Shown here: positions 2,038-37,775 of the stretch, piece by piece
Layout of the letters: every line of letters starts with the position of its first letter
Numbering within the stretch: the first letter of the stretch is position 1
Source: Psammoneis japonica
Lineage: Eukaryota
Reading direction: 5' to 3'
Length of the DNA: 64,000 bases
Assembly (NCBI GenBank): GCA_008632985.1
Contig: QPGO01000002.1
Location: forward strand, 682,001-746,000
Program-made: the position numbers and the translations under genes
The notes under the pieces: generated by a model
What the model saw: only the letters and a program-made list of their open reading frames with translations
What the model was told of the DNA's origin: nothing
The model's database searches: none

Positions 2038-2202
2038 CTTGGTCGTGGTGGAGAGAGCAGTGAAAGTAGTTTCGAATCTTCGTGATGTGGAGAAAAAGTG
2101 AAGCGTTTGGCAATCGCCACTTGCTTGCGCTTGTGGGAAAGAGCCTGAATTGGCCGTGAGAAATGGCCTGTTGCATGTCACCACACGGTACGTACAGTAT
2201 TC

Positions 2203-3450: not shown

Positions 3451-3739
3451 TAGATTTGTTTGAATGCAGCCTATTACAATTCCTATGGAAATTGGAAAGC
3501 TCATCGCCCTAAATAATGCTTTCAACAGTTTTTCATCAAAACAACAGCTAGGCATACTTGTTGAATTGCTTGGTATACTATTACTCTCTGGTGTCTCCCA
3601 GTGGATCAAACGGTGCAGTGTACGGACAACAGTTCTTTGATTTCTTGCCGCTCTTCGATGTCTTGCTGCCTTTCGATTTCTTGCTGCTGAGGAACTCTTC
3701 GTTGATGTACTCTAACGCGTCAAGGGCATGTAAAAAGCC

Positions 3740-5521: not shown

Positions 5522-5563
5522 GTTATACTCTCTTGGCTGCTGAGGTTCTCTCTAGTAGAGGGC

Positions 5564-5566
<3 letters not shown>

Positions 5567-5603
<37 letters not shown>
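5567..5603. repeat. (CT)n microsatellite
   Basis: Uninterrupted ct run directly upstream of the subtilase start codon. Confidence 0.95.
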
Positions 5604-5606
<3 letters not shown>

Positions 5607-5779
5607 GCACCGGCAGAGAATTGTCGCCAATCTCGCTCCAAATCTGAAATCTGGATCGCCATCTGGCATCGCATCGCGCAATCTCCGAGAGTCAAAAAAT
5701 ATCAAAGTCATTTATCAGAGTCATTTGCGACATTATTTGTAGATGAAACTTACGTCATGGAAGATTAGCCCTGGAAGAC

Positions 5780-6025
5780 CAACGATGTTGTAAGTTTCTT
5801 CTTCTTGACCAAATTTATAACCGTAGTTAGTTGATTCGTTTTCAGTTGTTTCACGGATTAAACTAGAAGTTACTAATGAACCGTGCATTGCACTGAATAA
5901 AGATCCACCAAATACACCAGCTACACCAGCCATGTGGAATGGGTGCATTAAGATATTGTGTTCTGCTTGGAATACAATCATGAAGTTGAAAGTACCAGAA
6001 ATACCTAAAGGCATACCATCAGAGA
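5780..6025 (-). pseudogene. psbA: Plastid-derived psbA (photosystem II D1) internal fragment, about residues 169-249; nuclear plastid DNA insert (NUPT)
   Basis: Translates as [81 protein letters not shown] with AT-rich plastid codon usage. Similarity ends abruptly on both sides. Confidence 0.95.
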
Positions 6026-11500: not shown

Positions 11501-13870
11501 GCATCAGTTCTTCAGGACAAACGGGAGTCTGGGCATTCTGGAAGGGACAAGTGCCGTAAACACCGGGGTCACACAACCTTTGATGTTCCATGTTTTGAGC
11601 TGGTGCTCTCCACTTTACACCTGTGACAAGCTGGAAATCGGCTTCGTAGATGTGAACAACACGCAACCGGTGAATTTTGGTGTTGCCGGGCTCCTTGAAT
11701 GTCATGACGTTGACCATGTCCTTCCAACGGTCAAAAGAACAACCCCATTGTAAGGCATGATTCAGAAGATTGAGGTGAATTTGGATCAAGGTTCATTGAA
11801 TGTTGTCCAATGGAACACAATCGGAATCGTCTTCTTGGTCCAACGCAGGGGCGTCCGAACATTGGTGAGGCACACACATGGCTTTCCAGTGTCCCAGATG
11901 CAACCCAGAACACAGGGATGTAGAAGTTGACTCCTTCCAGCTTTTGATCTTGCCCTCTAATTCTACCTCGGTTAAATGTTCCGACACCGAAACAGGGGAT
12001 CGGCATTTCAAACAGGCAATGAGTTGAGCTGTGGCATCGTTGAGAGAAGAAGTGTTGCAATTGCTGTCCAGCATGAGTTCCGCCACAACAGCATTGCCTT
12101 TGAATCCAAGGTCCACAGACAAGGGAGGAACAGCAGGAGGAGCACCATGTGCCTGCCCAAAATGCTTCTGGCTCCGCACACGAAGAGCAGTTGCAACGTC
12201 TTCTGGAGTGTCGAGTGTCATCCAATCGTCGCATTCCTTGGGATGCACATTCGGGTTCCAAGGGACTTGAATGCTGTCAATGCCGGTGTCCCATTCAGCC
12301 TTGCACGATTTGATCTTCTTGAAAAGTCCAACCATTTCTTCTGCTTTTTGTGCATTGCGAAGAATTGAAGCTTGTTTTCGGGACTGTTTGGTCCCGTCCA
12401 AATCGAGAGCTGCAATTTTGGCTGACATTTCCCGCTCACGATGCACGACACTGTCCGCTGCAATCTTCTTGCAATCTGTTTGAGCTTCTCGCAGGGCTGC
12501 TTGGCATTCTTGCAGTGTCTTGGGAATGACAAAGGATCCTTTGAGTTCATCACAAATCCATTGAATCTGGGATGCGCAATTGATCTTGGCGCGCATCATG
12601 GAAACTGTGCGAGAGAAAATACAAACACGATGACGAAGGTCTGCCAACTCTACAGACCAGTCGGGTTCACGATGATGCCTGCAACATTTGGCCGCCGCTA
12701 AAGAAAACTGTAAAAGGTCGCGATCCAATCTCTCTGCCAAGTCGTGATTGGGTTCGCTGAGTGCCAGGAGCTGTGCAGATCTTTCCAATGCAGAGCAACT
12801 CTCCAACACAGGACCGATGGCTTTCAAATGCGCCATGACCTGAGGTTTAGATGATGCTTGGACATCTCAAAAACATGCTTTGGGAAGATCAACCGCAGGG
12901 TTTCCAAACAATGCCATTGTGTCAAAGTCAACGTAATGCGCCCGGTGGTCGGAAGCAATGCGACACCCAAAGGCTTCGCACCCTCCCAGTCTGACAGCAG
13001 ATGAAGCTCCCGGCAAGGCTAGAATGAAGTCGAGGCGTTTTGATCCGCGGGTGTGCGTGGAGAAGTCAGTGTTTCCAATGATGTTGAAGAAGACGTCTGA
13101 CAAATTAAACCATTGCGCCAAGCTCGCCAAAGAATCCGCATCAAATTCGAAGTCCATGTTAAAATCGCCAAACAAGATCACTTCTCTGTTGGATTTGGCT
13201 GTGAACTCTTGGAGAATCCGAGATGAATCCGTGCAAAAGGCTTTGCGTGGGTCCACTGCTTTGGCTCCATTCTGTCAGAGGAGACATTGTTGCTGAGCAA
13301 ACGTGGCAGTTTTCCCTGGTTGGCGTTGGTTTTTGGCGCAAACTCTGCAGCACGAAACGAACACAACTTGTCGTCCATTGCGGCCATCGAATGCTTGAAT
13401 GGACCATCGCCCGAGGGGATCAGAAAGTTGGGACCTGTGCCGCGCAGACACAGCATTGCACGAGAAGAGAGCTGTTCCGCCAGGTTTATGTTGCGTTGAG
13501 AAGGGGTGGAACTGGTGGAGAAAGTGCCTCGGCCACGCAGCAGAGAATTGGAAACCGTGGACCTGCATGCTGAAAGAATGTCAAATTGTGTCATGTCCAA
13601 ACACACTTCCGATGTGCCAACAATGTCGGCTTGGATTTCATTGGCCACCTGGCAGCATTCGTTGATGTTGCCACCACGCTTGTCAAACTTGCATCCATTG
13701 GCATTGAAGGCGTGTGGTCGTGTGTGGTGTAATGACTTGGGGCGAAGGCTGTCGCCGACAGGTTCATTGGTTTTCAGGCGTGAAAAATCCATGCATCGAT
13801 CAGCCGGCGGATGGCAACTTTGTCCATTTAAAAGGGATTGCCACGCAGACACGTTTTTTGCAGGAGAGGG
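8538..13870 (-). pseudogene. LINE ORF2 (endonuclease, reverse transcriptase, RNase H), disrupted
   Basis: Consecutive minus-strand ORF fragments 13178-14203, 12867-13256, 11793-12836, 10572-11789 and 9264-10553 carry the domains in the expected order. Confidence 0.88.
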
Positions 13871-14081
13871 GTTTCCACTCATGATTGGGCCATGCTTCTC
13901 CAAAGAGAAGACTGGGGCTTGTAGCGAGGAAGTAAATTGGAACCACAATGGAGCAAGAAAGGTTGGTGCTTGCCAGTGCATTGGAAAACCCATGCAAGGG
14001 ACAGCAAAGATGTGCGTTGATGAATGTTGGGAGGGCGCCCAATGGTTTGTGGAGACGGAGGTGGCAAGATCCATCTCCATG

Positions 14082-15801
14082 CTAAAAATCCGAGTCTTTC
14101 CCATCATTGCTTTGGTTGGGAGTCTGATTTTGGTTTTGTCGCTTTCTCGTGGGACCAGGGGAAGGGGCTGACCGGGATGCTTGGAGCAACTGGATGATCT
14201 CATTCATCTGATCTTGCACACCTGACATTTTCTCCGAATGTTGTGATTGCGTGTTTTGCATTTCATTGGCATGTTCATCACGTAGTTCACGAAGGGCCTT
14301 TTCATGACGGGATTGCATTTGGGTCATTGTTCACTGGACCTCAGCCAATTGAACGGATGCAATTGAAGAGCTCGACAATGATTGAGCAATCTGAGAATGA
14401 GACGCCTGCGGAGACGCAATGCCAGGACAGCCGGTGCAACCACAACTTGGAGTTTGAAATGATGGTGGATTCGTGAACATTTGAGGAGGGATGGGATGGG
14501 CAGCTGACTCACCACGACCCTTGAAGAGCGGAGCGGCCAGTGCCTCTGCCAGACGAAGGGTTGGGCGGATGGATGGTGCAAGGAGCATCAACATTGGTCA
14601 AGGGAGACACATCTGAAAAGGTGAGAGACTCCAGGCTGCGGATGCCAGCCAACATGATTGATTTGCTGGCATCTGAAACTTTGTCAAGAACTCCGGAAAC
14701 CTGAGGAAGATCTTCAAATGGGGGAGTTGGGTGAGCTTCTTTAGGGAGATTTGGAGTTTCATTCAGAACACACGTTGAAATCTCAGCTTGGGCCTTTTTG
14801 AATTGAGCGCGGTGGACCAGGATGTTGTGTCTGCCAGTGGACAATGCGGAAGGGGAGGGAAAAATGTCAATTGTGCCCTGGATTGCTTCAATGTGATTCT
14901 CCAAGCAGAACATCATGTCCGCAGTCATGTGCAACAACGGCACGACGAAGGCATTGTTGTTGCGTTGGGCTTGCATTTTGACTGCATTGTAAAAGGCGAG
15001 TGGAGACACGCAACGGGTTTTTGCCACAAGGATGTGAGTCGGAAGCTTGTCAGATGCACACAAAAGGGTTTTTGCTGTGGTGCGACAGTCCTCTTGTTCA
15101 ACTTCAACCAAAAAGGTCGCCGCACAAATTGGCACTGAGGTTCTGTTGTCATCTGCTCAAACGGAAGTGGGAGCTGAGCGAAACTTTGGCATCTTGGTTT
15201 TTAAATCTCCAAGATCTTTGACAAACAACTTCGTAGCAGCATCAACGGGAGTGTGTTTTGATGCAGTTGCAATAAAATGTGCTGGACTGGCCGTGTCAAT
15301 GACAGATTCATTCCAACAATGACGCTTCAAACCCATGTTGTTTGCCTCCAAAACATTTTGAATGTTGGGGTGAGAACGAATGTCGCGTGGGGGCACTTTC
15401 GTGAGGATGCGGTGACACAAACGATGAGTGACGGGATGGTTCTCGCCACTGCGAGTTGTCGAAATCTGGAAGTGGCACTCATGTTGGAGAGCAGAAACCC
15501 ATTCGGCGACATTGACATTTGCAATTCTGGCATTGTTGTTGTCCAACACCTGAACTTCGTCATGGAACGTAAACAGGATCTGACTGAGAACTTGGAGATG
15601 AGAAGTCACGAGAGCCATTGGTTTGCAAGCAGCCTCTGGACCGCAAATGTCAAAGCAAACGGCAATCTCTTCATGTTGTTGTTCTTTTGGTTTTGACAAC
15701 GGTTTGAGAGAAGCTTGATCAACAGCAATGTCGTCAGCAATGGTTGCATCTTCATTTGCAGAAGTGGTGTTGCTGCCGTCAGCGGCGGAAGACGATGCCA
15801 T
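14082..15801 (-). pseudogene. LINE ORF1, disrupted
   Basis: Fragments 15157-15801, 14509-15135 and coiled-coil 14082-14327 lie immediately upstream of ORF2 on the same strand. Confidence 0.65.
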
Positions 15802-18800
15802 GGTGATCGGTGTTTCTACGGCAAGCCTGGCATTGAAAACATGCAGGTAAATTCAATGCCAACAAATGCAGAAAAGCAAACAAACAAGGACAGGACAGAA
15901 GAGAGCAAGGGCTGTTGATGAAGATTGGCTTGAGGCACATGAGATTCCATGAAGTGTTGTTGAGCCTCATGAGGTTGTTCACACATTCCGGCTGTGGCCA
16001 GTGAATTTGAGAAAGATGGGTGCATCAGATCAAAGAGACTGTGTGGGAAATGGATTGTTGGCAAATGTGATGCACAAGATGTCATTTTCTGAGAATCACC
16101 AACTTGAACCGCAGAAGCTCCAGCACATGCTGTCTGCCAATGCTGAGTTCCTTCCCTTGGCAGCTGATGAACAAAGCCATGTCAACTCCAATGTTTGGCT
16201 CTGTGCAGCTGTGATGCCGCTGTCATGTGCTTTGTCAGAAGGCAATGAGGAAGAGGGGCACTCAGATGTGCAGACTCCAAATAACCTGCTTCAACATGTG
16301 GAAATGTTGGTTCATGGATGCTTGGGAAGGGTTTTTTTTTTTGCAATGAGCACTGGTTGTGTGCCACGCCAAAACATCAACCTGAAAGATGCTGGACCAG
16401 CCCCAGGTTTTTGTTGCAGCCATCTGCCAAAATCTGACAGTCTGTGCAGTGGATCCAAAAAAGGGTGTTGGGCATGCTGCAAACATTCTGTCATTTCAAG
16501 TTCAAACAAGCCAACAAACACAGCTTTGTGAGCTCTCATCAAGGATGAGACCAGTCAAGTCTTGCAGCACACTTTCACGTGATCTTTGTAGAAGGGCAGC
16601 AGAGGCAATGGCTCAGCATGTTGATCTTGGAACTCACAAGCCTCCCATTTGTTCTGGGGACAATGTCAACACAAAGGATGGTCAGGGCAGTGCTGCTGAA
16701 CAGACAGCAATGCCATTGCAGGCACCTTTGATTGGTGAACTGCCCCACAATCAGGGTCCTCCACTCAATTGAAAGTGCACAGATTGGAGCAAATGGGTGA
16801 AGCCAAGCACTGATGATGAAGCACCAGCAGCATTCTTGCCAAGCAAAAAAGACAAACATGGAATTGGGGAAGTGGCACTGTCTGACTTTGCTGCCATTCT
16901 GCACAATCTTGACATGATGCCGTGGGGGGTTGAGGAGTGCAACAAATTGTGCTCTCCTGCATGTTTGTTTGTCACCACCAAGAAGATCCCATGTGTCTTT
17001 GGTGGCAGGTTGGCAACAAGCAAGACATTCAATGGTTTTGTTCCAGTTGGCAGGATCATGAAGAGCAGATTGTTGATGGGACAGTCCAAATCAATGCAGT
17101 GTGGAACAAGAGCCACACACATCCTTGTCCAATTCAAACATGACATTTGGGTCACAGGGAACTGCATGGCATCGTGGATGCATTGAAAATTGTCAAGCCA
17201 ACAATCAGATGGCAGCACATGAGAGTGCACTCTTGCAAGGCCTTGACATGCCTGCAGTTGAAAGGCCAATGTCCGCCAATTCTGCACTCTTTTTGGTGGA
17301 CGGTGCAATGGCAGAAATGGTGGGCTGGATGTTGGACAAAGATGCATCAAATGCTGTCTGAAAGCACAGCAAGTTGGTTGTTGTTCCTGGTCCTTTCCAT
17401 TGGAAGAATGACACTTTTAAAAAAGCCAGTCATTCAAATGAAGATTGGGCTGCACACATTGGAGATCAGCTTGCTCAAAAGGATGGGGAGAGTGCCTTGG
17501 AAGAAAATTTGTCATTTCTCATTGACTTCTCTGACCCAACCATCCCTGAAAAAAAATGTGCGCTGAAGCTTCAATGGTGGCAATTCTGGCTGCAGTCTGC
17601 TGGAGCATGAAGGTGTCAGGAAGGCAGCAAGCATCACCAGCAGATGCTCATAACTGGATGATGGAGCAAGCCACAGAAGTGAAGCCCTCAAACAATGAAC
17701 CTCATTTGAGTGCATTTTGATTGTCTCATCATGAGGCACTTCAAGCATTCATTCAGAAATGATCTGTGGGATTGTGGGGTTGATGCTTGAGTGCAGCTTG
17801 ATTGAGCATGCCAGTGCAGGCCATGATGCGTGGAACTCTTTGCTCCAGGATGGCTGGAGATCTCTTGCAAGATGCTGCAGTGTGCTGGTCCCAGACGGAG
17901 AAGGCAGTTGTAAAGATCAGTTGTTTGTGTTAAAGAGTGAACCAGAGGAGTGTGTTGAATGTGACACCATGCAAGAGAAACATGTCTGGGTCATTTGTGA
18001 GAGAATCAGTGATGAATTGAAAAGGGGGCATCAACCCAAAATGATTGAGGAAGCAACCCAAGCCACAGCCTTGCAAGCAAACAAGAGGCATGCAAAGCAT
18101 GCAATCAAGTGCCTTGGTTGAGAAGAAGAGGAGCTGTTGGAAACAAAAAAACCTTTGTTGGGCTGGACACAGAACAAATGGGCAACAAAGTCTTGTGTGC
18201 AAACATTTTGATTGTTGACAAGGAAAAGTTTTTCTTGCCGGGTCCATCAGAAAATGAAAAAAAATGACAAGTCTCTCATTTTGGCAAGAGACAGAGAGCT
18301 GTTGGATGCAAGACAACTTGATGCACAAAAGATTGGAGCAGAGAGGTGGAAAAGGTGCATTTCTAAATTTCTTGTCAAGAGTCAGCATGAGGTCCTTCAA
18401 AAAAGAAAAGGACATTGGCCTGGAAAGGATTCCAGCTGCAAGCTAGAAAATGGCCAACAAAATTGAGCAACGCCGGATCAGACGAGTGTCTGCTGACATT
18501 GAAGAGTTGAAGAAGAGCAGGACCAAAGAAGAGATTCATGACAAGTTTTCCATTTTAGAGCCATGTCTGAGTTGTGGTAAAAAGCGGAGGGCTCAAGCAG
18601 TCATTGATTTGACACCTGCAAAACTGAACGGAACAACCAAGATGTTCTTGGTTGGTCATCTTGTTCAATTGAGACAGACACTTTTTTGCCATTGGCCAGA
18701 ACTTGTTCCAACTTTGGGCAACGGCATCAGGGACAAACAGGCAGGAGATTCAACCACATCATGAGAGAGGGGACAGGAAATGCTGTGTGACAAGTTTTGT

Positions 18801-20487
18801 GCACAGAGGGAGTGCCCAGTGCCCAGTGCATGTGGATCCATTCCATCTTGAAAGAAAAGATTTGTTGTGGTCGCAGCTGAGACAATCTGCAGCAATTGTT
18901 TGCATTGCACACATCAGGTGCAATCTGCTCCACTTGTTTTGAAGCCTTGCTCAACCTCAACAGAGTCACAGAGAGAGAGAGCAGCAAATGACAGGCTCAA
19001 GTTGCAGTTCTTTGGCTGAATCTTGACACAGTGTCAGCAGCATCTGGTGTGCTTGTGCAAGCTGAGCGTTGGATCACTCAGAGTTCAGAATCCAATTTGA
19101 TGATGCACGATGTGTGACAGGTGTTTTGGCTTGTCTCCTTTGAGTTCTTGACAGTTTCACACTTTCAAAGCTTCACTTTCCTCTCTGAGCAAGTCTCACT
19201 CTCATTGTCATCAAGCAACCATGGAGCAGTGCTGTTGTCCCCAGTCATGCATTTGATGCAGTCATTGTCAAAAGGAAGGTTCTCACAGTTGAGGCCAATG
19301 ACAATTCTCTTTGAATGAGGTGGGATGGCTTCATCTGGTGGAGCAACTCCATTTTTGCATGGTGCGCCAACACTTTGCTCCAAAACAAGGGACAACTTGC
19401 AGTTGACTGGAACATCTTGCCCCAGTTCCACAGCATCAACCACAGATCTCTTGGCAGCCACCACTGCTCTGTGGACAGGTTGTGACATTGCATGGTGTGG
19501 CTTCACCTGCAAATCTTCACAAGCATGTTGGTGCTTTCCTGAATGCTTTTTCCACTTGCTCTGTTCCTGGCATGCTCATCCAGTGCTTCCTGAGTGTCAG
19601 AACAAAGCACGCAAGGTCCAGGAGAGCACTCACTGGAAAAGGTGGGACGTTGATGTGTGCATTTCAATCTGATCAATTTCCTTTCTTTTGTCATCTGGAG
19701 ACAAGCCACAACACCAATTTGCTGCAATGAGCTTCTCTTGAAGTGTCCCTGCATCAATGATGAGGGACACTGGCAAGCAATGTCCATTTGCAGCAGTTTT
19801 TGTTCCTCATGGGAGTGCTTCTCTGAGATTTTTGTGCAGCTCAGTCTGGAGAGCTTTGGATCTGTCCATGTGTCATTGTTGTTGTCCTTCATGTTGTTTG
19901 GCAGCATGGCATTGTTGACAAGAGCCTCGACTCCATGAATCTTTGCTGCTGGAATTGGAGCTGTGGATCTGGCTGGTGATTGTGGAAGCATTTTCCCCAC
20001 CTTGCACACATTGCCATTGTTGGCACCAGCTGCCCCGATTGGCGGCAAGCTTCCTTCATCATCACTTGGGTCAGGTGTGGCAGTGTCAACAGAAGGCATT
20101 GGGCACATTGCAGCACACAAAATGGAAGCCCCTGGGAGCCATCTTTTGCCATCATCGTTGGCATTAAATTTTGCAAATTGTGGTTTGTGTTGCGGAATTT
20201 CGCCCCTGCTGCTCTGACGGACAGAATTTTTCAAGCCAGCAGCTGGCTGCAGAAGGATCTTCAATCTGTTGGTTGATTGTGATGTGTCATCATTCTGGCA
20301 GCACCCATCCAACAAGCTTGGACGTGGGTGGGGCTGTGCTTCAGCCAATGCCTTTGAACAGAATGATTGATGCAGATTTGGAAGATCATGGTCCAACAAA
20401 AAAGAGGGACACAATGTTTCCTCCCAGATCCCCTTCCATCATTTTTGACTTGCCCACACACCAGCAGCATTGTCACCATGGTGGTCC

Positions 20488-21773
20488 GTGGAGTCAACAT
20501 GGAGGCACTTGCCCAACACTTCTCACTTTCAGTTGCCAGTCTCCCCAGATCAATGTTGGCAACAGAAAAAGGAAAGGCTGCCGAAAACAACACTGCTGCC
20601 ACAACACAGTTGTTGTCCATGGTGTGCAAAATGTTCAGCGCCAATCAGCCCAACAAGAAAACATTGCACAACTTTTTTGGCAAGGACATTGTGGCAGAGC
20701 AAGTGCAAATGTGGGGCGGTCTGCATGAGGAGCAACACCACACCATCAGGGCACAAAGGGTTGCTGATGAATCACCCACTTTATGATGCCGCGCAGGGTC
20801 TGGATGGTCATCTGTCAGGCACTCTGTTCCACATGCAAATGCTGTTGAAAGCTCTTTTGCATGCATGCATGGAGCCAAGCGCTGTTGGAGCCAAATTGGT
20901 TGCCAAACTCACAGCCAGGAAATTGGAGCTCATTTGTCCAATGAAAACGGGGTTCCACTCAGATGAACTCTGGCTGGAGAGGCACACATGCATTGCCACA
21001 CTCAAAGACTTTTGTTTTTAAGGCCAACTCAATGATGACCACTGGGCCAAGTCTCCATGGCATGACCATTGCCTGGGATGAAGCCAGTTGGCAACTGCAA
21101 AGCCTGAGAGGGCTGGTTGATTGGGGCAGTTTGTGCAATGGCAAGGTTTTGCACACAAGCATTCTTGTAAATTGTTTGGATCCACAGTGCTGGTCCAGCA
21201 GTTGCCCTTCAAGTTTGGGAGTCTTCACCATGCAAAAACACCGGTTCCATTGGGTGACTTCCTGAATCATGCTCATCACAGTGCCTTGCCATTCCAAAAC
21301 TGGGGTGCAAGATCTTTGAAGCATGTGAACCACAAGAGTCAGCAGCACCAAAAGCATGCAAGAGTCAGCAGCACCAAAAGCATGTCATTGTTGAGGGTCT
21401 TTGTCAAAAATTGCTTCGGCAAAGTTCGCTGCAGTTGCGTTGTGTGAACCAGGTCTGTGCTCTGAAGTGTGGGGGGAATTTACCACAAGACACGCCATCT
21501 AGAATCTGCAAAGGTCACACCAGTTTCAAGTCATTGTCTTGTGGCCTGTGGAACCACAGCAACAGGCAATGTGTTTGGCTTGCTTGTTTTGGACAAGCGG
21601 GATGTGGAGGAAAGAGTTTTTGGCCTGGGATGTGTGGGGCACAGAGTTTCACTTGTTTCCCTGACATTGATTGCGTCTGCACTCAAGACGCAACTGACAC
21701 CATTCATCAGGCTCAAAGTCTTTAGGAAGCTTGTCTTTCCTGGCAACAAAGATGACATCCTGCAGTCTGTCCC
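20488..21773. repeat. Dispersed repeat, copy B (hypermutated homologue of 2203-3450)
   Basis: Colinear with copy A, with almost all TA and most CG changed to TG/CA. Has an extra ~27-bp internal duplication near 21334-21385. Confidence 0.9.
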
Positions 21774-23351
21774 TGGCCAGGAAAATGGAGCTTGTTTGTC
21801 TGATGAGTGCACAGTTTGATTTGAACAAACTCTAGAGAGGCACCCACACATTGCCACAGATGCTGTGCTGTTAAATGTCACTCAAAGACTTCCATTTGGC
21901 AACCACTTTCACTTCTTTTTTGTTGAGAAATGGACATTTGGGTCTTGTGCTTTTTGTGCGAACGATCATTTTCAAACCGGGTGTTGCATGCAAACAATTC
22001 ACCTCCCTTGTTTCCACACCTGAAAAGGACAATCACCTGATGCAAGCCCAGATTGTTGCCACATTGTTTTGAAAATCAATGTTTGACAATTTCAATCTTT
22101 GGCTGCAATGCCTGGAATGGTCATTTGCAGCAGGAGCCTGAGAGCCTTGTTGGAGCCCCCTTCTTGTGTGCCTGAAGCAACCAAGGAACTCATTCAATGC
22201 CAATGACATGCCCTTCATTTTCCTGCCATCAAGCTTCTTTCTGCTGAAGACAAGAAAGTTTCTTTCTTGTTGTCAACCAGGAAAGAACCACACAAACCTG
22301 ACAGTTGTCTCTCTGCAGTCAAAGTTTTGTTGACAACCGGGCTCTCAACTGGAGTTCTCTTGTCAATGAAATCCATCTCACAGGGGTGCAAAAGTTTGCA
22401 ACACATCATGTCTCTCTCCCTCTGGGGTCATGCCAAACAGACCCACCCCTGCTTTTTTTCTTGCCTCCAGACAGCAGGCTCAACTTGTGAAAACAGAAAG
22501 CTGGCCTCATCCAGCAAAACTGACAATCCTCATCAGCTCCAAATCGTCCAAAAAAGCACCTTCTTTCCACTCAATTTCATCAAAAAAGCTCACAATGGTG
22601 CCCCACTGGCTGGCCTCCTTTTTGTCAAAGTCCTCATTGAGGCTCGTTGGTGCCACAGAGAGTGTGGCCATGTGGCAAAGCAAGCTTGAGAAGTGGGTCT
22701 GCATGCCTTGATTCTTCATCCCCAGCTTGCTTGACATCATGAGCATCTGAGCACGCTCAAGCTGCAAATAAAATGTTCTTGGACAGCTCATCTTGAAAAC
22801 GCATGTGTGCTCATGCCTGGTCATGCTCCACTTTTTCTGCTTGAGGTTGCTGGCATGGACAACAAGAATGGTGTGGGTTGCAGGAGGTGGATGTGCAAGA
22901 GGCTTTCGCTGTGTTCCCTCCCTCGCCTTCTTAAAAATGCTGCCATTGCAACCTGGCTGCAGGGTGTGAAGTGGACAAGAGGGATCCTGGCAGGTTGGGA
23001 CAACATTTGAAGAGTCAGTTCAAGTGTCACAAAGGCCTTGTAGAGATGATGGTTCATTGTGCTGGAAGGTGGCCTCCAGAGCCTCCAGCTGCACCCTCAC
23101 CACGGGACCTGCAACAGTGGGACAACAAGTTGACGCAGTTGGCACAGCAAGCGCTGGCTTCTGCAAGGTCTTTGCTGAAAGTGCCAAGTGACAAAGATGT
23201 CACCAAGACAATGCTCATGGATTCCAAAAACATGAGGTTGACTCGCACCACCTTTGATCTTCCAGCTCCAATTCCTGAGAACCAACCATTTGACCTGCAG
23301 GATGTGCAGAATGAAAGTGGCAACAAGATGCGCAGAACTCAATGCGGCACA

Positions 23352-23511
23352 TTGGTTGAGTGAAAACGTCTCATCTGAGCTGCTTGGTTGAGTGGCATTT
23401 TCTCAGCTCAGCCACTTGGTTGAGCAGCATCTTCTCAGCTGAGCAGCTTGGTTGAGCAATGTCTTCTCAGCTGAGCAGCTCGGTTGAGAGGCATTTTCTC
23501 AGCTGAGCCCC
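23352..23511. repeat. Minisatellite, 5 x 32 bp (ttggttgagNNgcattttctcagctgagcagc)
   Basis: Five adjacent units, each containing the palindrome CTCAGCTGAG or a 1-nt variant. Confidence 0.9.
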
Positions 23512-24454
23512 GTGAGTGCAGGGCCGTGGAGTTTCAGGCAGCTCTAATTTCAGTGCATTGACACATTTGTCATTCACAGCCAACCCCACAACACACAACC
23601 TAGAGTTTTACAAGATGCAGCCACTGCCAACTGGTGCTCCTTGGCAATTTGGCACTTGAGAAGAATGACGACACAAATCCCCGACAAAGCAAACCCTCTC
23701 CAGGTGCATTGTGGCCACGAATGCCGGGGGCCCACAACTTGTCATGCTTGATTGTGCTTTGAAGGTGGCCCCACCATGCCCCAAAACCCATGTTTTGTCC
23801 TTCAGGAAAGTGCTTGTCTAAAACATTGAAACACTTGGCACAGAGACGTTCACGATTGGCCTCCGTTTCCTCAGAAAGAAAACTTCGGACGTGGTCGGGC
23901 AGACAGTTTTTTCCATGCATGTCAGCTCTGACCTTGCCAGGGACCTTTGGGCACCACGGACCTTTGGGCCAGTGCCAAACACCAACTTGAAGGCCAAAAC
24001 AGCAGCCAGATTCTTGACAAAACTTTGGTGAGCAGACTTGGGGCTGCAGCGCGACTTGCCTTCCCCAACAGCAGATGGAACCGTCAGATCCTTAATTTCC
24101 TGGTGGCAAGCAATGAGGTGCTGCAACCGCTTCCGTTCACCCAGAGGCATGGGAATGACACCAGGTTCCACAGCAGCAGCATGAGCAGATGCAGCCGGGG
24201 ATGGTGCAGTCTTGCGCCTCTTGGAACTGCCCTTGGCAGCGGAAGCAGCAGTGGCCTGGCGCTTGTGGCTGGGTCTGGTGGCACGCGCACCAGCTTCGCT
24301 GCCAACAGCTGCTGAAGGACCAGCACCAGCACCACGTCTCCCAGCATTCGCAATCTGGGAAAACCTCTGCCTTGATGCCAAATGAGCAGACGTGGTGGTG
24401 GGAGCGAAGATGGGTCTGAAAATGCAGGAAGAAAAGATCAGGTGAGTGACGTCC

Positions 24455-24640
24455 TTTAGCTGAGAAAAAATTCATCAAAAAGCTCAGCTGAGCACTCAGC
24501 TGAGCCAATGAGGGATCATTGAGCTCAGCTGAGTGGGCAGGAAAAAACGCTCAGCTGGAGAACAGGACTCAGCTGAGTGACAACCAACCCCAAAAAAAAC
24601 AGCAGTGTGTCGCGCACGTGCAGCAGCGCACAGCTGAGAA
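24455..24640. repeat. Cluster of CTCAGCTGAG palindromes
   Basis: About 7 full or partial (CT)CAGCTGAG motifs in under 200 bp; same motif as in 23352-23511. Confidence 0.8.
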
Positions 24641-25161
24641 GCAAAAAGACAAAACAGCCAACCTCCTGTTCAGAGAGGAAGGAAGCCACGGTTCATGGTA
24701 AAAACTCACCCACATTGCCTTTGTTGGTTCTTTGTCGAGTTGCCGGCGGCATGACGTCGTCGGCAGTCGTTGTCGGTAGTCCGATGCGGTGTTGCGTTCG
24801 GTCGGATGCGTCTTGGAGAAGGAGGAGCGAGCGAGCGAGCGGTCGTTGAACTTTGGGGTTCGCTCCGGTGTTCGCGCGCGTCAGAATTCGAGTGACGCAC
24901 TCGGGCGACGTCACGCGCGCCGGAGCTCGCGGTCGGCGTGGAACGCACGGGTGTTTTTTCAGTACTGCTGACGTGTAGTACCGCGCACGTGGGATCGCAC
25001 GGGGGGTCAGCCCGGGGTCCGGTCAGTCCTGGGTCAGCGCGGTCAGCGCGGGGGAGTACTTTCGGGGATGTGGATGTCAAACGACACACAGTAACGCACC
25101 CGCGGCAGCGTCATTCGGCAGTCGTGCGCTCCTCTTCTGCAATAGAGCCTTCAGATTGGAA

Positions 25162-26697
25162 ATGTATATGGCAAAGACTGATCATAACATGGTAATGGGT
25201 GCCATGGCGGTGGTAACGGCGTTGCTCATCACGTGGGCAGTTTCTCCTATGGAGTCGGCAAAACCATCAGCGGATGATGGCATAATCATTCTTGAAGAAC
25301 GAGATGGCGTAGCTTCAGCGGCATCAGAGGAGGACAGCGATGACGAAGAAGAAGAGTTCACATGTCGACCAGACAACACAACTGATGAGCCTACTCCTGG
25401 TGAATCTTCTTGGACCCGACGAGTCCTCCCGGATGGAAGCGAGGAAGACGTTGGAGACCTTCGACTCGACGACATCAGTCGCCCGGAGGAAGAATGGCCA
25501 ATGATGAACCTTGATACTCCATATTTCTTTTTATCGCACACTGGACGAGATGGTGTGAAAGACGAGATTGCACGCCCGACAAAGTGGTTCCTCGAAAATG
25601 TATTGAATGTGAGAGCCTTTCTGGATGAAAAAGATATCAGTCCGGGACAAACGAAAACTGAAGCTCTCATCGCTCCAGCATACATGTGTACCCATGCACT
25701 GGCGATTCTTTGTCCTTCCTATCGTTCACGCCGTTTCTGCGTCCAGGAACTTAATACGTTTCTCAAACGTTGGCGAAACAAGGATGGAATACGCCTCATT
25801 CCTGCTCTGTGGCGCTTGGGCGATTTGGATGGATATCACCCAGATGTCGACGACCTCACTTGGGTGGCAGGACAGAAAACGAACTATCCAGTGGATTATA
25901 TGGTCCAGGTACTTTGGCCCGCCTTGATCAGTGAGCTCAATCGACCGGAAATGAGCCGGGTGGTCCTCGAAGATTGCTTGTGTCGATATGTTACAGCAAC
26001 TCGCGGAGAGAAAGAGATGCCACACTTTCTCGACCTTTTTGTGGAACGCAAAGGAAAAGATGGCGGTGGTGAGCCATCATCAAAGAAGGACAGCACTGTG
26101 AGCAAACAGTACCTTGGCAATCTCAACACTGCAGCGAATCGGATCAAAGATGCCATGAGCGTATTCAAAACTACAGGTTTTAGCGCTCAGGGAAGACTCA
26201 AGGACAACTTGGACGAGGCCAATTTGAAGATTGTGAACTACATGAAGCAGCTTGACCAGCAGAACCACACTATAGCTGATCTTCTGGTGCAACGCATGAT
26301 GCCCGAATTCGAGCGCTTATTGGACGAACTACTCAACAGAAAGAACATTTCAAACCATGGAGAAGGCTTTGGCAGGAACCACAACCGACCTGCTGAGCGC
26401 CGTAGCAAGTCGCCAAAAGATGTTATCCCTCCGGAGCTTGAGTGCCCATTGTCACTTGAGATCATGGAAGATCCAGTTATCCTTGTCCAATCTGGGATAA
26501 CATATGATCGGCGATTCATCTGCGAGTCCCTACTACACCACCCGAATCTTGATCCGTTTTTGAATGTTCGCTATACCGAAAAGTTGCAGTATGTGGAAAA
26601 TATCGCGGTACGGCAGTTGCTCACCCGCAAGCTGGGAGCGGCGGCGTATTGTCGCTTCGACGACAGCATGTTTCTCTCGGTCTACGAAGTGGTCTGA
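25162..26697 (+). CDS. Membrane-anchored TIR-domain / U-box protein
   Basis: N-terminal hydrophobic helix; TIR-like FFLSHTG..., AFLDEKDISPG, ALAILCPSY.SRRFCVQEL, LIPALW; coiled coil; U-box IPPELECPLSLEIMEDPVILVQSGITYDR. Intact and intronless, with normal TA/CG content. Confidence 0.85.
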   Translation: MYMAKTDHNMVMGAMAVVTALLITWAVSPMESAKPSADDGIIILEERDGVASAASEEDSDDEEEEFTCRPDNTTDEPTPGESSWTRRVLPDGSEEDVGDLRLDDISRPEEEWPMMNLDTPYFFLSHTGRDGVKDEIARPTKWFLENVLNVRAFLDEKDISPGQTKTEALIAPAYMCTHALAILCPSYRSRRFCVQELNTFLKRWRNKDGIRLIPALWRLGDLDGYHPDVDDLTWVAGQKTNYPVDYMVQVLWPALISELNRPEMSRVVLEDCLCRYVTATRGEKEMPHFLDLFVERKGKDGGGEPSSKKDSTVSKQYLGNLNTAANRIKDAMSVFKTTGFSAQGRLKDNLDEANLKIVNYMKQLDQQNHTIADLLVQRMMPEFERLLDELLNRKNISNHGEGFGRNHNRPAERRSKSPKDVIPPELECPLSLEIMEDPVILVQSGITYDRRFICESLLHHPNLDPFLNVRYTEKLQYVENIAVRQLLTRKLGAAAYCRFDDSMFLSVYEVV

Positions 26698-27019
26698 AAT
26701 CTTCATGACAATACTGAAAGAGGTGACAATGCGCCTGGGGATGGAAGCTGTGAATAAGTCAAGGTATACTTATTGGACTTTGCTTTGTATGCTCTGCAAA
26801 AAAGAGAATAAGGAACCCCCGCCTAGTTGTGTCAACCATCATGCGGGTCTAGCTAGTAGACTATCTTCGTTACCAGGTTGAGAACGGCTACTGTAGGTTC
26901 CGTCGCTACTACGTAGTATGTCAAGCTGAGGGAATGCGTACACGTACGTAAAGCGCAAAATTACGACATCAACGAAAAGTTTCTCTGCCCTCTCTCCTGT
27001 CCCCGCTAACTAGCCTCCC

Positions 27020-30000
27020 TCTTCACTCCTTCTCCCGGCGCTTCCAGAGCTCTCGCCTTGCTTCTGATGCCTGCGTCATTGCCGCCCAGCGCAAACTCCA
27101 TCTCCCCATCTTTCCTCCTTCCCTTGTTGGCACGCCCTGTTGCCTGTGGTCACGCCATCCTCGACGCTTGTGGTGATCATGCCTTCTCTTGCCGGCAAGG
27201 CCACAAATCTAAACTCTCTGATGGCCTCTGGGACACTCTCTTTGTGGCCCAGACCTTGGGGCCCCTTGCCCAGCTCTGTCATTCCTCCAATGATGTTCAC
27301 CTTGAGCCAGTGAATCTGCTTCCCAACCATCTGCTTCTCTGCCAATGTTGGCATTTCTGTGCCGCCCCCCAGCTTCTCTTTCTGCTCCCTCCTGCTGCCA
27401 CTGCCTTTCCATCAATGTCACCACTTCCCCAGCTCCTTTTTGCCCTCCTCCTGCTGGTCTGCCCACTCCTTCTCCTGTTTCAACTGAGGCACACCATTTG
27501 AGCATGAGACCAAAGTTCCTTGGACCTTCTGCTTCCTCCACTGATGGATCCCATGTTGTTGGTCTCAGCTTCTTCTCTTTGGCTCTTCACTCTCCTCCAC
27601 CTGCTCCCAGTGCAAGCCTCCCTGCCCCTCAAGTTCTGACATTTGCCACTCCAATGCTTCCTGTTCTGCCTTTCTCTGTGCCCCAACATCTCCATCTGTC
27701 TTTCTTCCTTCTGCTGATTTTGCAAAGAACAGCCTTTCCAGCAACCCTTTTGGCAGCCAGCACATGCCACTCCACCTCTCCTTGTCCCAGTGGGCCATCC
27801 AAAAACTTGGCAGATTTCATGTGCTGGTTTGTCCAGTCAAAAAGTCTCTGCAATTGCTCAACGTTCCTTCACAAGAGCAGTTTCATCACCAAAGCCAACT
27901 TTGTGGTGCAGATTCAGAGCATTGCTGCATCCATTGTGGAAACTCTTTTCCTCACTCACATTGTGCTTGAAAGAGGCAACAACCACTGCTGGTGCAGCTG
28001 GTCTTTTCTGAATGCTTGCGACCAAAGACATTTGAACAAGTGGCAAACAATCTTTTGCAAGTGGTCAACACCGACGCAAAAGTTAAGTCTGGAAATGCAG
28101 CAAAGAACATGCTGCAGGAAGGCCGGGGTGCTGTCAGGGACCTTGTGAAAGACAAGGCCAGTGGTTGGAAAAAACCGCCCTTTGTTCTGAGCAGGTGGAA
28201 GATCTGATGTGCAGCACATTTTTGAAGACTTGCAAAAATCTCAATTGCCTGAAGATGAAAAATTTGGCAATCATCTGCTTGAGGGTTTGCAACTTGATGT
28301 GCAGGCACCCAATGCCAAAGGAAAGAGAAAAGTTTGCCTCTTCCACGTGCATTGGTGTGTCTGGGAAGTGTCAAAATCAGAGCATTTCTGGATCTGCCAA
28401 AGGTTGGCATTTTGTCCTTCCCCAGCACCTGGCTGCATTTCTGTTTTCACACCCTTTCGTTGCTGTCATTGTTGCTTGAAATCAAGATCTCTTGCTCCCT
28501 TCAAAAGAAAGAAGGACATGGAAGAGCCCTCTCATCTTTGCTCTTGGGATCCTGACATCCGTCCCAATGCCAAATTTCCCCCACTTGGTCAACTTCTGTG
28601 GGACCTGGATGATGATGACATTGATGTTTTGCCTGTTGCTGGTCATGAGTCCAGCCCCAGCACCGCAGTTTGTCATCACACAACAAGTCCACCCTCCATT
28701 TCTTTGAACGACTGGGAAAATCATTTCCCGCCAGAGCACCAATGTCCCATCCCAAGCTTGTGAGAAATTGCCAGTGTCACTTCTTGTGTTCATGTGTTTT
28801 GCAATGGAGTGGACAAAGACGGCAAAATTGATGAGGACACAAATGACCGTGAGCTCATTCACTCCCTGTTTGATTTCCACTTGCTGTTGGATCTCTGTTC
28901 ATTGTTGAAACATTCCTTTGAGTCAGCCCAGCCTCTCCCCAATCCAATTTGGCATTCTCGCGAATTGAGCGTGGTTCCTCCATGAGCAACAAAGACTTCA
29001 TCTCATCAAACCACACTCCATTCCAATGACAAGCTGTTTGAAAAGCGTTTTTTCAGGGCTGAAAGTTCAATCTCAGCACATTGGCTCATTGTTGGATCCA
29101 ACAGTGCACCAGAGCTGTCTCCTTTGAATGGCTTTGGCATGTTTGATGTGGCGGATGATGTGGAATTTGTTCTTCAAGCAAAGGCCATGTTGGCTGGCAC
29201 CTTTGATTGCATGCAGTGCTTTCAGGATGAAACGCACATTGAATGCTTTGATCTGCCATTTTCCTGCAGCAACAAGGAGCAGACTAAAAAGTTTGGCCAA
29301 CCAGCATGGGAGAAACTCGGTGCTGAATGCTGCAAAAACAAGCTCTGCATGGTCCAGCTAAAAAAAAAATGAGCCAAGGTGGCAGGACATGTGAGCACAA
29401 AGATGACTCAGACTGCTGCTGGTTCATGTGCAATGACACTGGATGTCTTTGCTTGTTTGGCAAGGATTGAAATGTTGGCCAACAGCCGTGGCAAGGTGGG
29501 AAATTGCCAACAAATTGGAACATCAGTTCTTGTGGCATGGGTTGGCATTTTTGCATGTGCCATCAACTGCAATTGCAGCCGGTTCATCAGGGATTGCTCA
29601 GGTCCAGCTCGTCTCCACAAGGGTGATTTTTCCTGTTGCTGCCCTGACAATTTCTTCCTTGATGATGGTTGCCCATGAGAGTCAGTCTCCTTGCAATCAA
29701 AGGGTGGCACAATGCAGAATGCCATGGTGTTCCCTGCTTTGGTTGCACAGAATCTTTGGCTGTCTGCAGCCAAGACCCCCACTTGCAACATTCAGGATGA
29801 ATTGGGCATTTGCGGTTGTGTGCAGCTGGCAACAATGGCTGGCCACCACACAGGCTTAAAACGCTTTTTCTGCACCTGCACCAAACACTCAATCCATCCC
29901 CAGAAATGGCTGCTCTTGTTTGTTTCTGCAATGCCACGACTGTTTTTGGAATGGCTGCTGGGGACATTGGCATGACCCTTGTTGCATGAACCCAAGCAAG

Positions 30001-34920: not shown

Positions 34921-35001
34921 TCTCTAACCGTCCAAAGTCGTCGGTTTTGCGGCCGAAACTTTCGGTTTTGGGCATGCTTGCTTTTCTGCCAGAGCGATCC
35001 G

Positions 35002-35042
35002 TCCATCCATCCATCCATCCATCCATCCATCCAGCCATCCAT
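35002..35042. repeat. (TCCA)n microsatellite
   Basis: About 10 tcca units at the right edge of the depleted domain. Confidence 0.95.
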
Positions 35043-37395: not shown

Positions 37396-37775
37396 GTGGT
37401 AAAGATCTTTTTTTCAGAGAAAATGAATGGATCGCTGAAGCTTCAATAATATACCCGATTCTTGACTCGTGTGCTGTCGGCTGTCGGCGCTGTCGGGGGT
37501 TGGAGCGAATGGGAAGTTGTGAAGATCGAAAAAATCGGCGACATGGCACCTTTTTTCTACGTAGAATTCAACGTGAATTTTGTACGAAATTTTGCTGAGC
37601 ACATTCACCGAAAGCCCATCGCTATGCGTAGAATTGTACGTCCATTATTTTGATTTTGTACCATACCGACCATCCATCCATCCAACGGTGGATTATCAGA
37701 AAGCACAACCACCAAAACGCTATCGGTGGAGAAGATCGTACCGGTAATAGAATGTGTAGAAATAATGAGAAAGCC

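Follow-up and report, generated by a model that had tools for sequence, protein, structure and literature searches.

Organisation of the locus

The window, a stretch of 64,000 nucleotides from the diatom Psammoneis japonica (assembly GCA_008632985.1, contig QPGO01000002.1), holds a domain of 29 kb, at about 6015-34913, in which the dinucleotide TA is very rare. Within the domain (26,171 bp) the observed/expected ratio is 0.06 for TA and 0.31 for CG, compared with 0.60 and 1.00 outside it (34,101 bp), and the longest run free of TA measures 1587 bp, against at most 370 bp outside. The edges are sharp, being resolved to tens to hundreds of base pairs. The k-mer depth over the domain is roughly half of that over the flank. 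Two TA-poor blocks flank a spared island (Table 1). In the left block TA is nearly gone all along, and CG is nearly gone except at 8.5-16 kb and near 23.5-24.9 kb. The right block stops just ahead of the promoter of the next gene; many diverged contigs from a DNA sequencing run, X1, map there, with high summed depth. The evidence comes from one locus in one assembly.

Table 1. Features of the duplicate pair, the TA-poor domain and its borders
Feature	Position	Strand	Basis or remark
Open frame of 177 aa in copy A	2149..2682	+	Pfam PF07156, E = 1.3e-11
Copy A, unmutated partial duplicate	2201..3451	+	local alignment
Open frame with plastid psbA (D1) fragment, about 270-290 bp (frame residues 25-115)	5733..6098	-	Pfam Photo_RC, E = 3.9e-28
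Left block of TA-poor domain	6015..24962	.	dinucleotide counts
N-terminal remnant of dead prenylcysteine-lyase gene, residues about 78-316	6874..7709	+	tblastn
LINE-type retrotransposon	8416..15852 (approximate limits)	-	RT/RNase H frame 9264-12866
C-terminal remnant of the same resident dead gene, residues about 341-575	20286..20970	+	tblastn, 36 homologues
Copy B, duplicate segment inside domain	20485..21774	+	54/58 TA and 59/68 CG changed
Spared island, TIR + U-box gene (ORF 24979-26697) plus 3' end	24963..27011	+	Pfam
Right block of TA-poor domain	27012..34913	.	repeated DNA, dinucleotide counts

The plastid-derived psbA fragment adjoins the left edge of the domain, where the last normal TA lies at 6014. 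Its TA content is normal; the lack of mutation means that the piece either is young or lies beyond the tract.

TA and CG are both normal in the island (observed/expected TA 0.55), and its promoter at 24457-24962 is CpG-rich, with about 50 CG but 2 TA in 500 bp. The gene of the island is expressed: a contig of a second run, X2, equals 25205-26875 with 0 differences, and X2 is transcriptome-like, showing in a neighbouring gene a 142-nt GT..AG-type joint at 36812-36955 through which the DNA run X1 reads. X2 covers the TA-poor blocks with only three short pieces (42-69 nt, 6-9 mismatches), and this sparse cover is not counted as evidence of silence. The intact coding part of the island could reflect selection and not exclusion; the ~300 bp of its 3' UTR is the only neutral-looking spared DNA there.

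The left block contains a LINE on the minus strand. Its reverse-transcriptase frame has 5506 homologues by phmmer (best E = 4.5e-262), and the matches bear Exo_endo_phos, RVT_1 and zf-RVT; Pfam returned no match to the frame, taken either as three pieces or as a joined read-through of 1201 residues, at E up to 10. TA is mostly gone from the LINE and about two thirds of its CG are retained (observed/expected about 0.1 for TA and 0.5-0.74 for CG). When its changes are polarised with 20 LINE homologues, 219/293 conserved columns are kept, including Trp 15/15, Leu 35/40 and Arg 11/17, and conserved Tyr is kept at 3/13 positions, with four changed to His and four to Cys. Tyrosine makes up 0.5% of the protein, compared with at least 2.2% in the best 150 homologues listed, none of which is Tyr-poor in a search that favours intact copies. 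Loss of TA on this scale is also absent from 80 related metagenome LINE loci, where observed/expected TA is 0.39-0.85 (minimum 0.39 both per locus and per 2-kb window); these were the best 80 of 221 confirmed loci, picked by conserved motifs, so that mutated copies tend to escape.

About half of the domain is repeated DNA to which no family could be assigned. Pfam gave no match in 27 TA-poor frames (15 of 25 and 12 of 13 proteins in two scans), no homologue was found for a 462-residue frame at 31619-33007 (minus), an Atlas search with 19503-20438 (minus) gave no usable match, and no viral gene was recognised in the domain frames searched. Relative to other genomic copies of the repeats, adjacent TG-to-CA double differences occur at 19056/7, 33006/7 and 33499/500, and probably reflect independent resolution in separate repeat copies.

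A duplicated segment inside and outside the domain

One segment of the left block, copy B, has a duplicate outside the domain, copy A. Their local alignment has 1295 columns, 1047 of them identical and 49 with gaps (84.0% identity over ungapped columns), and no further long repeat emerges when the window is compared with itself by BLAST. An earlier note had described the pair as a 1.25-kb repeat. The two copies are real, but they arose by segmental duplication at the 3' end of a host gene and do not represent a mobile element. Besides the 3' end of a prenylcysteine-lyase gene, copy A takes in the spacer that follows and the last part of an ORF on the minus strand, and upstream of the copy a weak similarity extends to about 2165.

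Copy A has normal TA and CG, its non-coding part included, with 58 TA and 68 CG in 1.25 kb. At the TA sites, copy B shows 28 CA, 20 TG, 2 CG, 2 TC, 1 TT and 1 CT, with 4 kept; at the CG sites it shows 29 CA, 26 TG and 4 other outcomes, with 9 kept. A single transition, leading to TG or CA, accounts for 48/58 TA and 55/68 CG. Counted per base, the copies differ at 57/116 positions in TA, 60/136 in CG and 82/994 elsewhere, a background of 8.2%, and the Fisher odds ratios relative to other bases are 10.7 for TA (p = 1e-25) and 8.8 for CG (p = 9e-24). From A to B there are 51 T>C, 33 A>G, 43 G>A and 37 C>T substitutions. Recounting reproduces the tallies that the earlier note had made by eye, namely the loss of 19/20 TA in 2281-2700 (8 TG, 9 CA, 1 CG, 1 TC and 1 kept, in TTTATG) and of 6/7 CG in 2281-2460. 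The divergence at TA sites, for which the note had considered a value no greater than background, lies well above it.

The loss of both dinucleotides is alike across coding and non-coding parts of copy B: TA 18/19 and CG 21/25 in the coding part, 21/22 and 17/18 in the non-coding part at 2683-3072, and 15/17 and 21/25 in 3073-3451 (coordinates of copy A). It is not a base-calling artefact. Over 20127-22067, k-mer contigs of X1, a run that does not depend on a long-read consensus and its errors, match with 0 differences at a word depth of 30-37. X1 is possibly derived from the sample of the assembly itself, so it offers no independence at the level of the organism.

A dead host gene and the polarity of the changes

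The open frame of copy A aligns with diatom prenylcysteine lyases at residues about 388-575 and has 50-56% identity to 36 homologues; upstream of it, no N-terminal part is present within the window. Inside the domain, the two remnants of a dead prenylcysteine-lyase gene lie on a common strand, about 12.6 kb apart, with the LINE within the gap. The C-terminal remnant extends farther upstream than the DNA homology between the copies. The domain contains the whole dead gene, with copy B sitting in the parental locus and copy A being a partial duplicate of it.

The dead gene has lost particular residues. In its C-terminal remnant conserved Tyr is now Cys or His, and conserved Arg is now Trp, Cys or His; in its N-terminal remnant four conserved Tyr are all TGC (Cys). 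Over the gene, none of ten conserved Tyr is kept (6 Cys, 2 His, 2 other), and the two conserved Arg that survive, of eight, are both encoded by AGA. These remnants, which are unique DNA, are mutated throughout.

Polarisation with an outgroup had been proposed in the earlier note as a check, since copy A might have gained TA. The 36 diatom homologues were compared with the two copies over 158 aligned codons that include 44 amino-acid differences. They match copy A and not copy B: they agree better with A at 34 differences and with B at 6, with 4 ties, and among the differences that fall on a TA of copy A they favour A at 12 and B at 1, with 1 tie. Judged against these relatives, copy A keeps the ancestral state and copy B has lost TA and CG. 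A younger age of copy A, also raised in that note, is rejected as the reason for its intactness because both copies stem from one duplication.

Strands, sequence context and the separation of TA from CG loss

Both strands are affected. The TA sites of the pair have turned into CA and TG at similar frequencies (28 vs 20, binomial p = 0.31), as have the CG sites (29 vs 26). The outcomes along copy B form 55 runs, compared with 51.9 +/- 5.0 in shuffles, so the runs test on the pair finds no strand-coordinated clusters. The argument that near-equal TG and CA outcomes point to chromosomal DNA rather than RNA is borne out by these counts and by the changes in host DNA that is not transposon. Editing of RNA on one strand or an error of reverse transcription is rejected, given this near-equality and the equal numbers of His and Cys at the Tyr codons of the LINE; RNA editing followed by retrocopying is rejected as well, the host gene being affected in its own locus. 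The loss of TA acts at the level of DNA, on both strands, and is regional. Targeting by position and not by homology, as the earlier note proposed, is supported: copy A, the flanks and the island are spared and unique remnants are hit. Chromatin, which it named as the signal of position, may play that part.

The surroundings of a TA influence its fate. Survival relative to the DNA outside is 0.375 for TTAA and 0.33 for CTAA, and falls to 0.013 for ATAT, 0.021 for GTAC and 0 for ATAG; TA before a pyrimidine is lost most.

TA loss and CG loss are separable, being uncoupled in the LINE and in the promoter of the island. Where TA and CG sites are neighbours, their products agree in 25 cases and disagree in 22. 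The loss of CG fits a separate, slower and ordinary process, the decay of methyl-CpG, to judge from its pattern. CG has turned into TG or CA in both orientations, most strongly in old repeats, with a CpG-rich promoter kept (24.5-25.0 kb), as expected of such decay. This process accounts for the CG half only; TA is unaffected by it. In diatoms, CpG methylation of transposons via DNMT5a has been described (PMC9998398).

Relation to known hypermutation systems

The closest counterpart is found in the chlorarachniophyte alga Bigelowiella natans, where silent viral DNA integrated in the genome has been reported to undergo hypermutation restricted to TpA (Mettrop et al., bioRxiv 10.64898/2026.01.13.699255). 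In mutation-accumulation lines of that alga, 230/231 mutations in two silent viral regions are A>G or T>C, all of these at TpA, and the de novo rate is raised about 1000-fold; in the larger region 210/211 mutations are AT>GC, without an excess of C>T (10.64898/2026.01.13.699255). One of the two viral regions is present as a single copy; for the enzyme, the authors suggest an ADAT2-like deaminase (10.64898/2026.01.13.699255).

The diatom locus shares with this system A:T>G:C change at TpA, giving TpG or CpA on either strand, its regional extent within an otherwise normal genome, and a footprint poor in TA and rich in CA and TG; in B. natans such clusters show an excess of reverse-transcriptase and endonuclease-RT genes. 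Single-copy DNA is hit in both, so there is no dependence on homology. The differences are of host, state and target. The footprint here is in a diatom, which belongs to a different supergroup lineage, and is only a footprint, whereas live mutations are seen in B. natans; observed/expected TA is 0.06 here, compared with 0.45 in the giant-virus region of B. natans; and where B. natans has integrated viruses as targets, those identified here are a LINE and a dead gene of the host, with no viral gene recognised. CpG is lost here and receives no mention in the preprint, and the pyrimidine context and the spared transcribed gene inside the tract are absent from its main text. The diatom locus is regarded here as the same kind of process, far closer to saturation. 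In the literature searched, the B. natans preprint is the only report of TpA hypermutation in algae, no report concerns a diatom, and no paper joins adenine deamination with transposon defence.

Deamination aimed at selfish nucleic acids is known in animals, where the APOBEC/AID and ADAR enzymes edit retroelements and viruses. The substrates of these enzymes are RNA or single-stranded DNA, and the resulting changes form clusters coordinated by strand. At the diatom locus the outcomes are random between strands and DNA other than retroelements is hit. ADAR prefers a U before the edited A, according to the Discussion of the B. natans preprint (10.64898/2026.01.13.699255).

A proposed two-process model and its alternatives

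The reading preferred here, with a probability of roughly 0.6, is that a silent tract of 29 kb has undergone TpA-specific mutation by adenine deamination together with methyl-CpG decay. The prenylcysteine-lyase gene would have been broken by inserted DNA, including the LINE, after which the tract fell silent and two mutation processes reworked it in place. The first would be fast and restricted to A:T to G:C change at TpA on either strand, so that TA turns into TG or CA, and would end when TA is exhausted. Chemically it may be an enzymatic deamination, in nuclear DNA, of an adenine that follows T on its 3' side, converting A into inosine, which is read as G, with TA followed by a pyrimidine as the best substrate. 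The second would be a slower C-to-T decay at methylated CpG; since B. natans has no excess of C-to-T, the loss of CG here probably needs such a second process. Targeting would follow position or state (silent, non-transcribed) and not homology or foreign origin as such, and the process may have a role in defence.

An alternative places the change on the thymine. A TET/JBP-type oxygenase would mark the T of TpA for silencing as 5-hydroxymethyluracil (5hmU) or 5-formyluracil, and mispairing with G would turn T into C. 5hmU occurs preferentially at TpA, and 5-formyluracil mispairs with G. Because the strands are symmetric, all counts made here look the same for T>C before A as for A>G after T, and 5hmU has been tied to transposon silencing in dinoflagellates (PMC11572971). 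This alternative is nevertheless unlikely: adenine deamination is preferred by the authors of the B. natans study, and the presence of such a mark in diatoms is an assumption.

A single deaminase of dual specificity, acting on A in TpA and on C in CpG, would fit two losses that, as hydrolytic deaminations, share the product TG or CA and that each come to about 90% in copy B, and ADAT2 enzymes with activity on both bases, A and C, in DNA are cited in the B. natans preprint (10.64898/2026.01.13.699255). The uncoupling of the two losses in the LINE and in the island promoter, the mixed products of adjacent sites and the almost pure AT>GC spectrum of the larger B. natans region speak against it, and one enzyme for both sites is accordingly rather improbable.

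Repeat-induced point mutation (RIP), known from Neurospora and other fungi, resembles the present case in its dinucleotide-specific transitions, its ruined repeats, its effect on neighbouring unique DNA and its likely logic of genome defence. A RIP-like, homology-triggered process, possibly via a DNMT4 related to RID and spilling into unique neighbours, would suit a repeat-rich domain in which C>T at CpG makes up half of the changes, and diatom DNMT4 groups with fungal RID, a link that is phylogenetic only (PMC9998398). RIP, however, changes C:G to T:A, mainly at CpA, and creates TpA, whereas TpA is destroyed here and half of the changes are A:T>G:C. RIP is also triggered by duplication and hits both copies, and the intact 1.25-kb duplicate outside the domain contradicts such a trigger. 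There is very little room left for this explanation.

Still less probable is that the tract comes from, or was selected to resemble, DNA that avoids TA and CG, as in escape from a nuclease or a TA-targeting transposon: the dead host gene and the pseudogenised duplicate have lost TA from conserved Tyr codons as well as from neutral sites, and copy B has its closest relative, copy A, within the window itself. Equally remote is an artefact of sequencing or assembling modified bases, or RNA editing followed by retrocopying; some base callers for long reads can be misled by DNA with many modifications, but X1 is identical over copy B, the copies also differ by indels and at 8% of other positions, and both strands and non-transposon DNA are affected.

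Implications

Natural A:T to G:C editing of chromosomal DNA at a two-letter motif has one prior report in the literature searched, a 2026 preprint on an unrelated alga. The same signature is now present, and at saturation, in diatoms, a major group of phytoplankton with genetic tools. The locus has a built-in control: the inside and outside duplicates, polarised with an outgroup, reveal the spectrum of change, its extended context and its rate compared with CpG decay. The dead host gene fares like a transposon, a transcribed gene in mid-tract escapes, and TA loss can be separated from CpG loss; each of these contrasts is a handle on the targeting signal and on the enzyme.

It is possible, although the odds are against it, that diatoms and chlorarachniophytes share an old enzymatic DNA-editing defence, in which adenine deamination guided by the silent state erases TpA and transcribed units are shielded. 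Such a defence would read the state of chromatin or transcription, and not homology or CpG methylation. If this is true, TA-free tracts would be a permanent and datable record of silencing, in which the decay of TA serves as a fast clock, that of CpG as a slow clock and other sites as a neutral clock. Builders of base editors, too, would have an interest in an adenine editor that works naturally on nuclear DNA.

Composition and edges of the tract

The window is diatom nuclear DNA. Its phosphofructokinase has a best identity of 68–74%, to diatom proteins, with no identical protein on record; diatom proteins are also the best matches of the prenylcysteine-lyase fragments, and the genes flanking the tract are ordinary host genes. 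Within the tract TA is almost absent, CG is strongly depleted and TG + CA is nearly doubled: per 2 kb, observed/expected ratios are 0.01–0.15 for TA, 0.07–0.74 for CG and 1.5–2.05 for each of TG and CA. Pooled ratios are 0.06 (TA) and 0.31 (CG) for 26,171 bp inside the tract, against 0.60 and 1.00 for 34,101 bp outside, and the longest TA-free runs measure 1587, 1291 and 1249 bp inside but at most 370 bp outside. The G+C content (0.485 inside, 0.479 outside) is unchanged, as a rough balance between A:T>G:C changes at TA and G:C>A:T changes at CG would predict. An island within the tract is spared, with normal ratios (TA 0.55, CG 1.04).

The left edge is the end of a plastid-derived psbA fragment, and on the right the tract stops ahead of the promoter of the next gene. 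The psbA fragment, set in nuclear DNA, has a normal TA content: either it is a young insertion of organelle DNA, or it lies outside the tract as a true boundary marker. Simple repeats occur just outside the left edge and just inside the right edge. In a DNA sequencing run of the same organism, possibly from the assembly's own sample (X1), word depth is 30–37 for unique tract contigs, the TIR/U-box gene included, versus 56.8 for the flank contig at 35913–37900; perhaps only one haplotype carries the tract, or its two alleles may have diverged so far that they have no k-mers in common.

Features of the tract and its surroundings, in window positions
Feature	Position	Strand	Basis or remark
Frame in copy A	2149–2682	+	Pfam
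Copy A	2201–3451		outside tract
(CT)n repeat	5560–5605
psbA (D1) fragment, plastid origin	5733–6098	minus	Photo_RC E = 3.9e-28
TA-poor tract	~6015–34913
Dead gene, residues ~78–316	6874–7709	same as C-terminal part	tblastn, 36 proteins
LINE (non-LTR retrotransposon) frames	~8.4–15.9 kb	minus	homologues and their domains
LINE 1200-residue frame	9267–12866
Dead gene, residues ~341–575	20286–20970	same as N-terminal part, right order	tblastn, 36 proteins
Copy B	20485–21774		inside tract
Tandem duplications in copy B	21330–21400
Island promoter	24457–24962
Spared island	24963–27011
TIR + U-box gene frame	24979–26697	+	Pfam
TA-rich 3' end of island	26698–27011
(CATC)n repeat	34995–35035
DnaJ/DnaJ-X intron	36812–36955	minus	142 nt, GT..AG
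Phosphofructokinase	37632–39506

A dead host gene and its partial duplicate

Copies A and B are the sole long repeat in the window. A mobile element was considered and rejected: the segment is the 3' end of a prenylcysteine-lyase gene. The frame in copy A encodes the C-terminal third of the protein (Pfam E = 1.3e-11; 50–56% identity to 36 diatom homologues), and in tblastn with these proteins copy A spans residues ~388–575 alone, with nothing of the gene upstream. With both parts present, the tract thus holds the resident gene, complete but dead, with ~12.6 kb of inserted DNA between its two parts; copy A duplicates only the 3' end of this gene and the DNA downstream. The two copies are therefore of the same age, which disposes of the alternative in the earlier note, a copy A that was merely inserted later. 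Copy A has an open frame of 177 codons, yet only the last third of the gene, and it deviates at outgroup-conserved positions, such as Val for Met (30/36) and Asp for Ala (34/36); it may be a decaying fragment, with the working gene, if one exists, elsewhere.

The alignment of the copies has 1295 columns, 1047 identical and 49 gapped. Where copy A has TA (58 sites), copy B has CA at 28, TG at 20, TA at 4 and another state at 6; for CG (68 sites) the figures are 29 CA, 26 TG, 9 kept and 4 other. Divergence at TA is above background: the copies differ at 57/116 bases in TA and 60/136 in CG, against 82/994 elsewhere (Fisher p = 1e-25 for TA, 9e-24 for CG). A recount of TA over 2281–2700 and of CG over 2281–2460 gave exactly the numbers first reported by eye, and the proportions of CA and TG bear out the claim that both strands of chromosomal DNA are struck. 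In 53 of 57 lost TA exactly one of the two bases was altered, via a transition, as expected of a process that is specific for TA and thereby removes the sites on which it acts. Losses of TA and CG are equal in coding and non-coding parts. Along the sequence the CA and TG outcomes form 55 runs (51.9 ± 5.0 expected), and this random alternation of strands favours numerous separate events over processive bursts on a single strand. Copy B also has short tandem duplications within it, which add 14 and 12 bases around ...CAGCAGCACCAAAAGCATG... and are missing from copy A.

TA and CG were lost by the tract, not gained by copy A. The 158 aligned codons yield 44 amino-acid differences; the 36 outgroups are closer to copy A at 34 of these and to copy B at 6, the remaining 4 being ties (TA-linked 12, 1 and 1; CG-linked 10, 2 and 2; others 12, 3 and 1); a copy A that gained TA from an ancestral copy B is at odds with this result. 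A second polarity test, independent of copy A, compares both halves of the dead gene with outgroup-conserved columns. Tyr is kept at 0 of 10 conserved Tyr columns (6 Cys as TGY, 2 His as CAY, 2 other), and conserved Arg survives at 2 of 8, both times as AGA, which lacks CG; four others are Trp, Cys, His and Gln. In copy A, Tyr is retained at 4 of 6 conserved columns and replaced by Phe at the other two.

A retrotransposon inside the tract

The 1200-residue frame of the LINE has 5506 homologues (best E = 4.5e-262), which carry apurinic-type endonuclease, reverse-transcriptase and zf-RVT domains. Against 20 full-length homologues it keeps 219 of 293 conserved columns (Trp 15/15, Leu 35/40, Asp 19/21), with Arg at 11/17 and Tyr at only 3/13, where 4 His and 4 Cys are found. 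Its Tyr content is 0.5%, compared with a mean of 3.6% in the 20 aligned homologues and a median of 3.5%, none below 2.2%, among 150 listed of the 5506; in 80 related metagenome loci (the best 80 of 221) TA observed/expected is 0.39–0.85. TA loss is therefore not a trait of the family: the tract copy underwent it once inserted, within a short time and while otherwise changing little.

Other genomic copies of the tract repeats differ from the tract copy mostly by transitions, among the 40 of 474 rows of differences listed. These include several adjacent TG-to-CA double differences (19056/7, 33006/7, 33499/500), as would follow if each copy had resolved an ancestral TA or CG on its own.

Survival of TA in the tract, relative to outside, is biased by neighbours: 0.375 for TTAA, 0.33 for CTAA/TTAG and 0.20 for GTAA/TTAC, but 0.013 for ATAT, 0.017 for ATAC/GTAT, 0.021 for GTAC and 0 for ATAG/CTAT. 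This agrees with the earlier note, in which the surviving TA sat in TTA. In a rough fit of an additive per-strand model, TA before T or C is lost fastest, then before G, then before A.

The spared island

The island matches a transcription unit. A contig of the second run (X2) matches 25205–26875 exactly; X2 also has the spliced form of the neighbouring DnaJ gene, which X1 lacks. X2 is recorded as 'DNA?', and the removal of the DnaJ/DnaJ-X intron in its contigs shows that it behaves like a transcriptome. Because the 3' end of the island is likewise spared, selection on the protein is not the whole reason for the sparing. The target is best read as silent, non-transcribed DNA. TIR followed by U-box is an immune-type architecture, and the gene stands alone amid the hypermutated tract behind a very CpG-rich, TA-poor promoter.

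Mechanism and alternatives

TA loss acts on DNA and on both strands, changes A:T to G:C specifically at TA, and is confined to a delimited tract. A 2026 preprint on Bigelowiella natans (Mettrop et al., bioRxiv 10.64898/2026.01.13.699255) describes mutation-accumulation lines in which two integrated viral regions, one of them single-copy and transcriptionally silent, mutate ~1000x faster than the remaining genome; A>G and T>C account for 230 of their 231 mutations, and these 230 all lie on TpA. Across the B. natans genome, clusters poor in TA and rich in CA+TG show an enrichment of reverse-transcriptase and endonuclease-RT domains, and the authors propose an ADAT2-like adenine deaminase. A process of this type, directed at silent DNA and based on enzymatic deamination of adenine, is our preferred reading of the diatom tract (probability about 0.6). 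Overall, the interpretation of the earlier note is supported. An enzyme would deaminate the adenine of TpA in silent DNA, turning TA into TG or CA.

The main rival, in which the TpA thymine is oxidised to a base that mispairs with G, would produce counts inseparable from those of adenine deamination, and we consider it unlikely. One dual deaminase for both TA and CG is more doubtful still, since the two losses are uncoupled: the LINE has TA ~0.1 but CG 0.5–0.74 (older tract parts have both below 0.25), and the island promoter has ~50 CG but 2 TA. At the right edge CG recovers ~300 bp before TA; neighbouring TA and CG sites have the same product in 25 cases and different products in 22, so the strand of the outcome is not shared; and the B. 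natans process, as the preprint describes it, has no C>T excess. TA loss and CG loss are thus two processes, the former unusual and faster than both CpG decay and background, the latter read as the usual decay that methylated CpG undergoes. Diatom transposons are reported to carry CpG methylation (PMC9998398); the same paper places diatom DNMT4, an enzyme of no known function, with the RIP enzyme RID, and DNMT4 is a possible player for the CG half only.

Homology is not the trigger, because the 1.25-kb duplicate outside the tract is intact, as had been argued earlier; RIP-like triggering by duplication is accordingly very improbable, and the tract fails both defining tests of RIP, spectrum and mutation of both copies. 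Nor is foreign sequence required as a target, since host-gene remnants are as depleted as the repeats, which leaves selection or a foreign origin of the tract little chance. Artefact or retrocopy is equally hard to credit: X1 contigs (word depth 30–37) are identical to the window across copy B, ruling out base-calling errors at modified bases, and TA loss on both strands of the LINE excludes editing of its RNA, ADAR-like and APOBEC-like editing both failing on the strand pattern.

Relation to known systems

A literature search found no diatom report of such TA loss, and the text of the B. natans preprint mentions neither CpG nor diatoms. As far as that text goes, the two systems share the TpA signature and the independence from homology. 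They differ in lineage, in the depth of TA loss (0.06 in the diatom tract, 0.45 in the B. natans giant-virus region), in the identified targets, here a LINE and a dead host gene, and in the additional decay of CpG; neither a neighbour preference nor the sparing of a transcription unit appears in the preprint's main text. Because of this one recent preprint TpA loss is not without precedent, and the diatom tract is a striking second case, from a different major lineage and with unusually clean internal controls.
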